DNA of 4,436 bases, taken from a virus. Its lineage: Duplodnaviria > Heunggongvirae > Uroviricota > Caudoviricetes. Where the stretch lies: the IMG/VR virus record IMGVR_UViG_2582580962_000008. One strand, written 5' to 3'. The translations under genes were made by a program, and so were the position numbers. The notes beneath the pieces are model-generated. The model searched no databases. It had not been told where the DNA came from and saw only the letters and a list, made by a program, of their open reading frames with translations. This document shows, in pieces, positions 1 to 3,467 of the stretch (positions are counted from its first letter, which is position 1; the number at the start of each line of letters is the position of its first letter).

Positions 1-1
1 A

Positions 2-220
2 GAGCAAGTGGCTGATTGTTACCGTCTGCGATGGCAAATTGAACTGGCTTTTAAGCGGCTCAAAAGTTTGCTGCACCTGGATGCTTTGCGTGCAAAGGAA
101 CCTGAACTCGCGAAAGCGTGGATATTTGCTAATCTACTCGCCGCATTTTTAATTGACGACATAATCCAGCCATCGCTGGATTTCCCCCCCAGAAGTGCCG
201 GATCCGAAAAGAAGAACTAA
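2..220 (+). CDS. insL: IS4-family transposase (IS186 InsL-like), C-terminal fragment; the 5' end is outside the window
   Basis: Frame is open from the window edge to TAA at 218-220. The translation ...VADCYRLRWQIELAFKRLKSLLHLDALRA... carries the Y-x2-R-x3-E-x6-K motif typical of IS4-family DDE transposases. The IS186 terminal repeat lies about 150 bp downstream. Confidence 0.8.
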   Translation, partial: EQVADCYRLRWQIELAFKRLKSLLHLDALRAKEPELAKAWIFANLLAAFLIDDIIQPSLDFPPRSAGSEKKN

Positions 221-368
221 CTCGTTGTGGAGAATAACAAAAATGGTCATCTGGAGCTTACAGGTGGCCATTCGTGGGACAGTATCCCTGACAGCCTACA
301 AAACGCAATTGAAGAACGCGAGGCATCGTCTTAACGAGGCACCGAGGCGTCGCATTCTTCAGATGGTT

Positions 369-391
369 CAACCCTTAAGTTAGCGCTTATG
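369..391. repeat. Right terminal inverted repeat of IS186 (23 bp)
   Basis: CAACCCTTAAGTTAGCGCTTATG is the reverse complement of CATAAGCGCTAACTTAAGGGTTG, the IS186 terminal sequence as I remember it. It is followed immediately by a GGG-TAAA-CCCC target-like sequence. Confidence 0.65.
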
Positions 392-630
392 GGGTAAACC
401 CCGAAACCATGCTGGAAGGTGTGAAACGCTACGCGGGCTGGGTATCTGCGATGGGCAATAGCGGCACACAATTTGTGAAACAGGCTGTCACGTTCTTTGG
501 TCCGGATCGTCATTTCGAAGAATCCTGGGAAGTTCCTGCGGTATCTGCAGCCAGACGCGAGGACCCGTACTTCAAAGCCAGTTACGACAACGTGGACTAC
601 AGCCAGATCCCGACAGGATTCAGGGGGTGA
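392..630 (+). pseudogene. Probable 3' remnant of a phage ORF interrupted by the IS186 insertion (hypothetical protein, C-terminal ~79 codons)
   Basis: Frame 1 is open from inside the IS end to TGA at 628-630. No convincing RBS precedes the internal ATG at 409. The stop overlaps the RBS and start of the next gene (GGGGGTGATCATG), a sign of a once-functional coupled gene. The translation (...GWVSAMGNSGTQFVKQAVTFFGPDRHFEESWEVP...YFKASYDNVDYSQIPTGFRG) matches no family I can name. Confidence 0.4.
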
Positions 631-632
631 TC

Positions 633-1121
633 ATGAGTCTGATGAACGATGTACAGAAATTCATTGAAGCCCATCCGGGGTGTACTTCAGGTGACATTGC
701 GGATGCTTTTGCTGGTTACTCACGACAGTGCGTTCTGCAGTCAGCAAGCAAGTTACGTCAGAGTGGCCGTGTGGCTCACTGTTGTGAAGGGAAAACACGC
801 AGACATTTCCCACACCAGGCTGAGATATCGCAGGAGGAGAAACTGCAACCTGTTCTTGAAACCATACCTGTGCGCAATTTCTATGTCGGCACTAACGATC
901 CCCGGGTGATTTTGTGCCTGACCCGCCAGGCGGAAGAACTGGAGTCCAGGGGCTTATACCGTCGTGCTGCAACCGTGTGGATGGCGGCATTCCGTGAAAG
1001 CCACTCCCAGCCAGAACGAAACAATTTTCTGGCGCGTCGTGAGCGGTGCTTACGGAAAAGCAGAAAGCGCGCTGTAGCGGGTGATGAGTGGTATCTGTCA
1101 GGGAATTACGTGGGGGCTTAA
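633..1121 (+). CDS. PerC-like transcriptional regulator family protein with an N-terminal extension (about 162 aa)
   Basis: ATG at 633 follows a GGGGG RBS (623-627); the track start at 627 is a GTG inside that RBS. The C-terminal half carries a PerC/Pch-type motif (AEELESRGLYRRAATVWMAAF), matched from memory against EPEC PerC and EHEC Pch proteins. The stop TAA at 1119-1121 overlaps the next start (TAATG). Confidence 0.55.
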   Translation: MSLMNDVQKFIEAHPGCTSGDIADAFAGYSRQCVLQSASKLRQSGRVAHCCEGKTRRHFPHQAEISQEEKLQPVLETIPVRNFYVGTNDPRVILCLTRQAEELESRGLYRRAATVWMAAFRESHSQPERNNFLARRERCLRKSRKRAVAGDEWYLSGNYVGA

Positions 1122-1774
1122 TGAGTAATAAATATTGCCAGGCGCTGGTGGAACTACGGAACAAACCAGCCCATGAACTGAAGGAAGTGGGCGATCAGTG
1201 GCGCACGCCGGACAACATTTTCTGGGGAATTAACACCCTGTTTGGCCCGTTTGTTCTGGATCTGTTTACTGACGGTGATAACGCCAAATGTGCCGCGTAT
1301 TACACGGCGGAAGACAACGCGCTGGCACATGACTGGTCAGAACGTCTTGCGGAGCTTAAAGGTGCTGCCTTTGGTAATCCCCCGTACAGCCGCGCCAGTC
1401 AGCATGAGGGACAATACATCACCGGCATGCGTTACATCATGAAGCATGCCAGTGCCATGCGTGATAAAGGCGGGCGCTATGTTTTCCTGATCAAAGCGGC
1501 CACCAGCGAAGTGTGGTGGCCGGAAGATGCAGATCATATTGCTTTTATTCGCGGGCGTATTGGTTTTGAACTGCCAGCCTGGTTTATCCCGAAAGACGAA
1601 AAGCAGGTGCCAACAGGTGCTTTCTTCGCTGGTGCTATTGCTGTTTTCGACAAGACCTGGAAGGGAGCGGCAATCAGCTACATCGGGCGCGATGAACTTG
1701 AGGCATGTGGTGAGGCATTTCTGGCGCAGGTTCGCCAGCAGGCGGAAAAACTGGTCAGGGAGATGGCGGCATGA
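1121..1774 (+). CDS. Phage Dam-family DNA N6-adenine methyltransferase (orphan)
   Basis: ATG at 1121 is preceded by a GGGGG RBS (1112-1116) and overlaps the upstream stop; the track start at 1088 is an upstream GTG. The protein has the (D/N)PPY catalytic motif of N6-adenine methyltransferases (AAFGNPPYS) and an N-terminal WRTPDNIFWG...FVLDLFTDGDNAKC region typical of the phage Dam family. The stop overlaps the next start (ATGA at 1771-1774). Confidence 0.85.
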   Translation: MSNKYCQALVELRNKPAHELKEVGDQWRTPDNIFWGINTLFGPFVLDLFTDGDNAKCAAYYTAEDNALAHDWSERLAELKGAAFGNPPYSRASQHEGQYITGMRYIMKHASAMRDKGGRYVFLIKAATSEVWWPEDADHIAFIRGRIGFELPAWFIPKDEKQVPTGAFFAGAIAVFDKTWKGAAISYIGRDELEACGEAFLAQVRQQAEKLVREMAA

Positions 1775-2097
1775 CGACATTAACTCAATGCCAGCAGCAG
1801 GTGCTGGATATGCTGATTTCTTATCAGAAAGAACGTGGCTTCCCGCCAACCAATCAGGAGGTGGCAACCATGCTGGGATACCGTTCGGTGAATGCAGCGG
1901 TGGAGCATCTTCGCGCACTGGAGAAAAAAGGTGTCATCACGATAAAGCGTGGCGTGGCCCGGGGTATCACTCTTCATACCGCGGTGAAGGACGACGACAG
2001 CGAGGCGGTCGGGATTATCCGCGCCCTGCTTGCCGGTGAGGCAAACGCCAGGCTGCGTGCAGCCCACTGGTTACATGAGAGGGGCCTGAAAGTATGA
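1771..2097 (+). CDS. LexA-like protein consisting of the N-terminal winged-helix DNA-binding domain only (108 aa; no S24 peptidase domain)
   Basis: A GGGAG RBS (1758-1762) precedes the ATG. The protein aligns by eye over about 65 residues with the E. coli LexA N-terminus (LTxxQQxVxDxI...GxPPTxxExAxxLGxRSxNAAxEHLxALxKKGVIxIxxGxxRGIxL), including the RS-NAA-EHL recognition-helix region. It ends about 40 residues after the DNA-binding domain with a LexA hinge-like LLAGEANA segment and no Ser/Lys catalytic core. The stop overlaps the rusA start (ATGA). Confidence 0.85.
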   Translation: MTTLTQCQQQVLDMLISYQKERGFPPTNQEVATMLGYRSVNAAVEHLRALEKKGVITIKRGVARGITLHTAVKDDDSEAVGIIRALLAGEANARLRAAHWLHERGLKV

Positions 2098-2489
2098 AGC
2101 TAATACTGCCTTTTCCGCCCAGCGTGAACACGTACTGGCGACACCCCAACAAAGGGGCGTTTGCTGGTAAGAGCCTGATAAGCGCGGCGGGGCGAAAATT
2201 CCAGAGCGCGGCGTGTGCAGCAATAGTTGAGCAGTTACGTCGTCTGCCGAAACCAACGTCGGCACCTGCTTCAGTGGAGATCGTGTTGTTTCCTCCGGAT
2301 AACCGGATCCGCGATCTGGACAACTATAACAAGGCGCTGTTTGACGCCCTGACCCACGCGGGTGTGTGGGAAGACGACAGCCAGGTGAAAAGAATGCTGG
2401 TGGAGTGGGGACCGGTTATCCCGGAAGGGAAGGTCGAGATCACTATCAGTAAGTACGAAAAAGCGAGTTGCAAATTAGCAACTCGGTAA
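2094..2489 (+). CDS. rusA: RusA-family Holliday junction resolvase (crossover junction endodeoxyribonuclease)
   Basis: The N-terminal LPFPPSVNTYWRH matches the RusA LPWPPSxNxYYRH motif. The catalytic block RDLDNYNKALFDALTHAGVWEDDSQV corresponds to E. coli RusA D70/D72/K76/D91 ([28 protein letters not shown]). ATG at 2094 overlaps the upstream stop; TAA at 2487-2489. Confidence 0.9.
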   Translation: MKLILPFPPSVNTYWRHPNKGAFAGKSLISAAGRKFQSAACAAIVEQLRRLPKPTSAPASVEIVLFPPDNRIRDLDNYNKALFDALTHAGVWEDDSQVKRMLVEWGPVIPEGKVEITISKYEKASCKLATR

Positions 2490-2651: not shown

Positions 2652-3467
2652 ATGAATCAGTTGCTTGTAATTGATGGCGTTTCTGTGCGCCAGTACTTCG
2701 AATCTAACTACTGTCTTAACGACCTTCAGAAAGCTGCTCTTCTTGCCGCTGGTGAGAATCGCTCCTCCCGTTCGCTGGAAGTTCACGAGTTTATGCGTCG
2801 TCCTGAAACGAAGGCTCTTGTGGAATTATTGGAAGAAGAAACTACGGGAGATTCCCGTAGTATTCCTGTCATCACCATTCAGGGGCGCAATGGTGGGACG
2901 TATGTCTGTAAAGAGCTGGTCTATGCATATGCAATGTGGATCAGCCCGGCATTCAGCTTAAAAGTGATACGTACTTTTGATGCGCTTCATAATTCATCAC
3001 CAGAAGAAACCACATCCGACAAAATTAAATCCGGGGTCATTCTGCTTGAATCAGCAGCAAAGACTCTAAATCTGTCAAACTCCTCGAAACTTGGTGCATA
3101 CCAGAAATTATCAAAGGTAGCTGGTCTTCCTGAACTTATGCCGATCTATGCCATTGATGCACCTGCTGATGCGCCAGATGGTTCAAGCCGCCCTACGCTG
3201 TCGCTGAGTGCACTGCTGAAGCAGTATGGTATCCGCCTGACGGCTAATCAGGCATATCACCAGATGGCGAAGCTGGGGATCGTTGAACAACGCGAACGAT
3301 ACAGCCGTACCGCGATTAACAACATCAAAAAATTCTGGTCGCTGACAGCGAAAGGCTGCATGTTCGGCAAGAACATCACCAGTCCTGCAAATCCGCGCGA
3401 GACGCAGCCGCATTTCTTCGAATCCCGATTCCCTGAGCTGTTAAAGCTGCTCGATACCGTTCATTGA
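2652..3467 (+). CDS. KilA-N domain protein (antirepressor-like or Roi-like DNA-binding protein; C-terminal domain uncharacterised)
   Basis: ATG at 2652 follows a GGAG RBS (2642-2645) with a 6-nt spacer; the track start at 2640 is a GTG overlapping that RBS. The N-terminal domain has the KilA-N hallmark block GTYVCKELVYAYAMWISPAFSLKVI (family pattern GTWVHPxLAxxFAxWLSPxF) and the upstream YCLNDLQKAA segment. The stop TGA at 3465-3467 overlaps the RBS of the next gene. Confidence 0.8.
   Translation: MNQLLVIDGVSVRQYFESNYCLNDLQKAALLAAGENRSSRSLEVHEFMRRPETKALVELLEEETTGDSRSIPVITIQGRNGGTYVCKELVYAYAMWISPAFSLKVIRTFDALHNSSPEETTSDKIKSGVILLESAAKTLNLSNSSKLGAYQKLSKVAGLPELMPIYAIDAPADAPDGSSRPTLSLSALLKQYGIRLTANQAYHQMAKLGIVEQRERYSRTAINNIKKFWSLTAKGCMFGKNITSPANPRETQPHFFESRFPELLKLLDTVH

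Follow-up and report, generated by a model that had tools for sequence, protein, structure and literature searches.

The DNA analysed here (the window: 4,436 nucleotides from the IMG/VR virus record IMGVR_UViG_2582580962_000008, classified in the Caudoviricetes) is a run of genes on the same strand, of the kind usually seen in the early-right arm of lambdoid prophages (Table 1). The gene of main concern begins at ATG 633 and ends at TAA 1119–1121, and according to the ORF list it is an intact coding sequence for 162 amino acids. An intact relative of the locus, 99% identical to the window from position 391 on, is found in strain DETEC-S792. In that strain, a leftward gene for a cI-type repressor with an S24 peptidase is followed by cro, a CII-like ymfL, DUF4222, Rha/Ash, two small ORFs, a 327-aa replication protein and yfdN; on the 3' side of yfdN come genes for Dam, a protein consisting of the LexA DNA-binding domain (LexA-DBD), RusA, KilA-N, DUF968 and Q. 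A first-pass annotation of this DNA had placed the gene inside a prophage, and both the phage neighbours and the position of the intact version, between cI/cro and Q, bear this out.

Table 1. Features of the window, with the matching replication-protein ends at two related loci (L001, L011)
Feature	Position	Strand	Details and basis
IS421 (IS186-like, IS4 family), 3' end	1..391	+	Transposase C-terminus to 220, terminal repeat to ~391
Phage replication gene, 3' remnant (last 73 codons)	409..630	+	PHROG 26426, 270, 1701 (replication protein / DnaD-like loader)
Conserved replication-protein C-terminus	window 559-627; L001 6166-6237; L011 4924-4995		
Translational-coupling junction	622-635	+	SD-like AGGGGG 622-627, GTG 627-629, TGA 628-630, ATG 633-635
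yfdN-type CDS	633..1121	+	ORF list, K-12 YfdN identity, PHROG 1324, RefSeq annotation
Winged helix-turn-helix domain, residues 1-60 (predicted)	633..812	+	H3-13, H19-25, recognition helix H31-44, beta-hairpin wing 47-60
Linker, residues 61-89, acidic, disordered, length-variable	813..899	+	pLDDT, alignment gaps, dN/dS, pI 4.7
PerC/ANR-type three-helix core, residues 90-145	900..1067	+	Pfam PerC match; helices 90-105, 109-122, 126-145
C-terminal tail, residues 146-162, motif WYLSGNYVG	1068..1118	+	Alignments A2, A3
Phage N6-adenine DNA methyltransferase, Dam type	1121..1774	+	Pfam Dam 153.5 bits, TIGR01712 254 bits
LexA-DNA-binding-domain-only protein, 108 aa	1771-2097	+	Pfam LexA_DNA_bind 69 bits
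RusA	2094-2489	+	
KilA-N protein	2652-3467	+	
DUF968/HNH protein	3475 to window end	+	

The product of the gene aligns without gaps to K-12 YfdN (b2357, prophage CPS-53/KpLE1), with 142 of 162 residues identical (88%), and the nucleotide identity to K-12 yfdN is 91%. This identity over the full length, together with the common order replication gene–yfdN–dam, places the protein in the YfdN orthologous group; in K-12 the same order is seen in yfdO (a replication remnant), yfdN and yfdM (a methylase remnant). PHROG 1324 ("transcriptional activator") matches the protein from end to end (E 8.4e-75), and RefSeq names the gene "yfdN: PerC family transcriptional regulator". K-12 YfdN and the phage orthologues share this name, the gene order and the two-domain architecture described below. 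Judged by its sequence, the ORF is an ordinary yfdN allele of the SfV/CPS-53-type lambdoid prophages of Enterobacteriaceae. The first-pass annotation had implied something novel, but the allele lies in a gene whose name and PerC annotation are already standard, in RefSeq and PHROGs alike, and this is not a new kind of system. The approximately 20 substitutions that separate it from K-12 YfdN are concentrated in the linker (HQAEISQEEKLQPVLETI here, RLTERAQDPEPQPVRETR in K-12), and in the window the gene 5' of yfdN is interrupted by IS421.

The gene is common. At a coverage of at least 80% it was found in 2547 of 5426 complete E. coli genomes (~47%), LEE-negative K-12 among them, in copies that are mostly 90–95% identical; the copy of strain 2012EL-2448 is identical to the ORF in the window. 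It is also present in 56 phage records, including those of SfV (orf40), SfIV (gp42), SfII, mEp460 (gp44), Ayreon and ST64B (Sb43), many Stx2c phages and some Stx2a phages. An exhaustive HMMER search yielded just 101 clusters (clustering at 50% identity), and some two dozen of these are full-length two-domain proteins with 27–47% identity. The named relatives belong to Escherichia, Shigella, Salmonella, Citrobacter, Enterobacter, Hafnia and Siccibacter, and a locus search of genome contigs with alignment A2 gave E. coli and Shigella loci only, plus fragments. There are also rare chimeras (P0033, P0096 and P0070, with 1–13 sequences per cluster), in which the HTH of the upstream replication protein or of an Xre-type protein is fused in frame to the YfdN body and part or all of the YfdN winged helix has been replaced. 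These are probably products of deletion or recombination. The idea raised by P0033 and P0096, that the winged helix of YfdN is itself a duplicate of the HTH of the upstream replication protein, was abandoned, as BLASTP aligned nothing between the two.

The stop codon of the replication gene overlaps an alternative, in-frame GTG start of yfdN at 627, which yields the 164-aa form annotated by RefSeq, and the SD-like AGGGGG lies 5 nt 5' of ATG 633. At the other end, the yfdN stop overlaps the ATG of the methylase as TAATG. (Both the SD-like element and this junction were read directly from the DNA.) No sigma-70-like promoter was found upstream of yfdN, the sequence between IS421 and the gene included. 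Given the overlapping stops and starts on both sides and the lack of a promoter-like site upstream, yfdN is read as a translationally coupled operon gene.

The element at the left end of the window gives matches to Pfam DDE_Tnp_1 and NCBIfam IS4. Over the 395 bases at its end it is 100% identical to copies annotated as IS421-family transposase, and homology to intact prophages begins at 391. The bases at 391–402, GGGGTAAACCCC, resemble the G-run/C-run target that IS186 presumably prefers, and look like the target of IS421. After the insertion, just 73 codons remain at the 3' end of the replication gene, and yfdN and the genes downstream of it are parted from the early promoter region. Replication of the prophage is probably defective, and with IS421 between yfdN and the early promoter region it is doubtful whether this copy is expressed. 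Is this copy, then, a silent passenger, with an early operon decapitated by IS421 and an ORF that is still intact since the insertion is recent? The truncation of the replication gene at ~391 and the lack of a promoter-like site between IS421 and yfdN are consistent with such a state, and among the best matches listed for the set of 5426 complete E. coli genomes none extends to the left of ~369, which suggests a recent insertion. On the other hand, the ORF is of full length and identical to the 2012EL-2448 copy, and read-through from IS421 or anti-terminated transcription from upstream is possible. A silent copy is conceivable, though not what we would expect, and it would concern the expression of one copy rather than the function of the protein.

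The slot occupied by yfdN is kept in homologues of 25–39% identity from E. coli, Enterobacter and Salmonella, and in phages. At the distant loci, a Phg_2220_C-type replication protein is followed by the YfdN-like gene, an adenine methylase, LexA-DBD and RusA, and then by KilA-N or Rha/ANT and DUF968, with Q in the E. coli and Enterobacter loci. The methylase belongs to any of three Pfam families (Dam PF05869, MT-A70 PF05063 or MethyltransfD12 PF02086) at loci that are otherwise syntenic, which looks like non-orthologous replacement at a fixed position. In SfIV, Ayreon and 2H10 the methylase is missing and yfdN abuts the LexA-DBD gene; the case for an obligatory link between yfdN and the methylase is weakened by these three phages. 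Similarly, the replication proteins encoded 5' of yfdN-like genes are of at least two types that are unrelated save for their last 24 residues. Since both the methylase families and the types of replication protein vary, the constant feature is the slot, and not any particular partner gene.

Two side observations concern these neighbours. At the C-terminal end of the replication proteins, the final 24 residues (RED.YFKASYDNVDYSQIPTGFRG) are 58% identical between two proteins without other significant similarity, and could be either a conserved recombination joint between phage modules or a functional docking peptide; the C-terminus encoded by the remnant in the window recurs unchanged in the replication protein of mEp460 and in the product of the intact L001 gene. 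The methylase at 1121–1774 is called 'phosphoadenosine phosphosulfate reductase' by PHROG 33262 and several RefSeq phage records. This label looks like a propagated misannotation, as the Pfam Dam and TIGR01712 matches point to an N6-adenine methylase.

YfdN itself is predicted to consist of two domains joined by a flexible linker. AlphaFold2 was run twice, with 20 close homologues and with 23 sequences down to 24% identity, and returned the same architecture. In both runs, pLDDT was ~79–89 for the N-terminal domain (residues 1–60), below 50 for residues 63–82, 90–95 for the PerC core and low, ~52–66, for the tail. Structure prediction and a fold search gave residues 1–60 the topology H1-b1-H2-H3-b2-b3, superposable on solved winged helices, and the predicted model has the structural features of the MarR / BlaI-MecI / ArsR-like winged helix class. 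The corresponding sequence matches all lie below family cut-offs (PHROG 1687 MarR, 6e-5; BilQ, 0.058), as do those to Penicillinase_R, MarR_2 and HTH_24, which were obtained for 2–7 of 24 relatives (best E 3e-4), so that DNA binding by YfdN rests on the predicted structure. A PDB sequence search with the family profile gave chance-level matches only (E 0.47 or worse, e.g., YfiA) and no solved relative. The first-pass annotation had described an N-terminal extension of about 80 residues that resembled a winged helix: the winged helix is supported by the predicted structure and the fold search, but it is confined to residues 1–60, and the extension is longer, ~90–97 residues, as it also comprises the linker at 61–89.

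The second domain is the PerC-type core that the same annotation had recognised by the string GLYRRAATVW, and this identification was correct. The string occupies residues 107–116 (nt 951–980), within a match to Pfam PerC (PF06069) at residues 98–151 that covers model positions 5–58 of 90. The HMM search that had been proposed as a check is clearly significant, with 36.9 bits (E 4.4e-9) against a gathering cut-off of 22.6 bits, and the protein thus belongs to the Pfam family. The core is strongly basic (pI 11.3) and carries RRERCLRKSRK in addition to GLYRRAATVW. All 24 members of a diverse family alignment (25–47% identity) match PF06069, so the PerC match has not arisen by chance, and both domains and the tail are kept in all 24. 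The tail motif, WYLSGNYVG in the window, is L-A/S-G-x-Y/F-x-G in distant relatives, with G157 invariant and G161 nearly so in alignments A2 and A3, and it is absent from PerC/Pch.

Pairwise identity in the diverse alignment is 28% for the winged helix, 35% for the core and 32% for the tail, against 8% for the linker, where 43% of the alignment is gaps. Comparison with the K-12, SfV, SfIV and mEp460 alleles gave dN/dS values, all based on small counts, of 0.12–0.22 for the winged helix, 0.17–0.64 for core plus tail and 1.25–1.77 for the linker. By these comparisons, the winged helix and the PerC core are under purifying selection and the linker is not. As both domains are also kept throughout the family, the two-domain arrangement has been selected, and is not an annotation artefact or a chance fusion.

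How close is YfdN to the PerC homologues of pathogenic E. coli? For the comparison, pchA (104 aa, prophage Sp4) and pchE (ECs1588, 90 aa, P4-like Sp7) were taken from the genome of O157:H7 Sakai. The YfdN core of ~50 residues aligns to PchA 7–56 and PchE 1–52 only, with 40% identity in each case and BLASTP E-values of 2e-8 and 6e-10, respectively. The columns that are invariant in the alignment with PchA, PchE and YfdN spell LE..G.YRRAA..W and R..CLRK, so that the protein has the core motifs of functional PerC-family members; the residues in common with Pch include AE.LE..G.YRRAA..W. A tblastn search of 72,556 plasmids with the C-terminal 83 residues returned yfdN-type genes only and no pEAF perC, and the link to authentic PerC is thus visible just by profile or pairwise comparison. 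PchA/B/C of EHEC O157:H7 and PerC of EPEC, all activators of LEE1/ler, share with YfdN a homologous core of ~50 residues and carriage on prophages. They differ from it in most other respects. In Pch (104 aa) the core is N-terminal and is followed by a C-terminal part of ~48 residues without equivalent in YfdN (nothing aligned to PchA 57–104), whereas the core of YfdN is the C-terminal part of a 162-aa protein, with a winged helix and linker before it and a different, short tail behind. PerC homologues were reportedly classified by Porter et al. in 2005. The architecture of group 1 (PerC and PchA–C; ~90–104 aa, N-terminal core plus the Pch C-terminal region) is not that of YfdN. The genes are also placed differently: pchA is a moron of the late region, encoded on the opposite strand and flanked by the Q region and the lysis genes, while yfdN belongs to the early operon.

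PchE and the PerC homologues of PICIs (e.g., EcCIMP1_025) have a YfdN-like core as well (40% identity over 52 residues for PchE), but unlike YfdN they are single-domain proteins without a winged helix, encoded on satellite or PICI elements. They do not behave as LEE activators: PchE acts on curli and flagella, and EcCIMP1_025 represses LEE1 (PMC6265319, PMC7369912, PMC11773190). When assayed for ler activation, PchD had none and PchE gave less than 2-fold (PMC5931665), and the PICI-encoded homologues were reported as inactive, apart from the repressor EcCIMP1_025 (PMC11773190). Since the members of the PerC family include activators, neutral proteins and repressors (PMC5931665, PMC11773190), membership predicts little about function.

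What, then, does YfdN do? The literature search found no paper testing its function. The gene was deleted from MG1655 as a precaution, as "the K12 unique PerC homologue", before Pch assays (PMC5931665). Elsewhere, yfdN over-expression led to a glycogen phenotype in one screening study, a five-gene fragment of UTI89 that includes yfdN2 was enriched in a filamentation screen, and in CFT073 yfdN was seen to change together with other prophage genes; none of these gives an interpretable function. The reading that we favour, with a probability only slightly better than even (about 0.55), is that YfdN is an early phage DNA-binding protein that modulates transcription or nucleoid-protein complexes, by a mechanism that is proposed here from analogy. 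Upon induction or infection, YfdN would be produced together with the delayed-early genes; its production in the lysogen would not be constitutive. The winged helix of the predicted model would provide DNA targeting, and the tethered, basic PerC-type module could then remodel nucleoid-protein/DNA complexes, much as Pch displaces H-NS at LEE1. Pch binds DNA at many loci by ChIP and lowers H-NS occupancy at LEE1 (PMC4764244), and YfdN and Pch may have a common action on H-NS-bound DNA. Alternatively, the PerC-type module might contact a regulator, in the manner of ANR proteins. The effect would be on how phage genes, and incidentally host genes, are transcribed, and YfdN would not be a dedicated activator of ler or the LEE.

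ANR proteins such as Aar and Rnr consist of a small three-helix module of the same length as the YfdN core. They are stand-alone proteins of ~60–70 aa, usually paired with a gene for an AraC-family activator; no such gene lies near yfdN in the window. The YfdN core aligns to positions 5–52 of the 54 of the NCBIfam ANR model (NF033650), and at 23.2 bits (E 4.4e-5) outscores both PchE (17.9 bits) and PchA (13.6 bits), but the score is under the model's cut-off of 32 bits, and indicates a related fold rather than membership in the family. ANR proteins are reported to act by contacts with AraC-type regulators and H-NS (PMC5570504, PMC10148876). An ANR-like YfdN would be an anti-regulator whose C-terminal module binds H-NS, an AraC-type activator or a phage regulator (CII or Q, for instance) and blocks its oligomerisation, with the winged helix serving to localise or dimerise the protein. 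Besides the scores and the matching length, the PICI protein that is annotated as PerC but acts as a repressor, for which an ANR-like action was proposed (PMC11773190), speaks for such a mode of action. However, the basic nature of the core and the DNA binding of Pch by ChIP (PMC4764244) fit contact with nucleic acid equally well or better. An anti-regulator of this kind is an unlikely alternative to the DNA-binding modulator, although it retains some appeal. Comparably tentative is a broader proposal, that YfdN-type proteins are a separate and conserved class, each with a PerC/ANR module tethered to a DNA-binding winged helix of its own, and that the class keeps one and the same place in the early operon of SfV-like lambdoid phages throughout the Enterobacteriaceae. 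Such proteins would be site-directed anti-silencers or regulators of the replication/methylation region, and possibly ancestral to PerC, Pch and ANR, which would have lost the winged helix.

The fixed place beside the replication and methylase genes could also point to a role in DNA metabolism rather than transcription. YfdN might be an accessory protein that works with the upstream replication initiator, or that directs or regulates the adenine methylase downstream. The gene is always directly 3' of the replication gene, to which it is translationally coupled and which is the single recognisable replication gene in these phages, and a methylase, from whichever of the three families, comes next. 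Two family members also weakly match winged helices of the FaeA/PapI type, which act with Dam methylation. However, the phages that lack the methylase altogether (SfIV, Ayreon and 2H10) keep yfdN, and the upstream proteins, alike in their last 24 residues only, offer no fixed partner. Furthermore, YfdN lacks an ATPase motif and is not similar to helicase loaders, nor is its winged helix related in sequence to the upstream protein. Such an accessory role appears improbable, more so than an ANR-like one.

Least probable of all is the proposal of the first-pass annotation that YfdN, like Pch and PerC, activates ler and the LEE, or different virulence genes in the host, allowing the prophage to cross-regulate virulence: the significant Pfam match, the 40% identity to the PchA/PchE core with its shared motifs (LE..G.YRRAA..W and R..CLRK) and the homologues on Stx2c- and Stx2a-converting phages argue for it, but the similarity stops at the ~50-residue core, the C-terminal 45–50 residues of Pch are missing, pchA is an opposite-strand late moron whereas yfdN sits within an early operon, the results with PchD and PchE (PMC5931665) and with EcCIMP1_025 and the other PICI homologues (PMC11773190) run counter to it, and the presence of the gene in K-12 and in about half of E. 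coli genomes implies that LEE control is not its selected function. The PerC label should consequently not be read as "LEE activator" in a protein that has only the core in common with the activators, occurs in LEE-negative strains and is encoded in a phage early operon.

As a discovery, this common and already named prophage gene carries little weight. The literature search found no paper in which the combination of winged helix and PerC domain in YfdN, or the constant place of its gene, is described, and the architecture and the conserved slot are a small descriptive addition. YfdN is a tractable K-12 protein and could serve as a convenient model for a PerC/ANR module that is joined to a predicted DNA-binding domain; this would be relevant to the workings of Pch and ANR regulators.

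A last observation concerns the genes further downstream. The LexA-DBD protein encoded at 1771–2097 has no S24 peptidase, and its place beside RusA is conserved in every related phage; one possibility is that it mimics LexA but is uncleavable, and acts on a nearby SOS-box-like site. This site, TACTGTATTTATGAACAGTG at 2535–2554, agrees with the LexA/SOS-box consensus in 16 positions out of 20, has the core CTGT-N8-ACAG at 2537–2552, and lies in the sole AT-rich gap of the window (39% GC), directly 5' of the KilA-N gene. This core is seen once in the window, where 0.07 occurrences are expected, and it is present at the equivalent place in L001 (8147–8162) and in SfIV (L021, 5255–5270). These sequence features suggest that the KilA-N gene, whose product is perhaps antirepressor-like, is under SOS control. 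In the Salmonella loci, the CTGT-N8-ACAG pattern is found directly 5' of the LexA-DBD gene.
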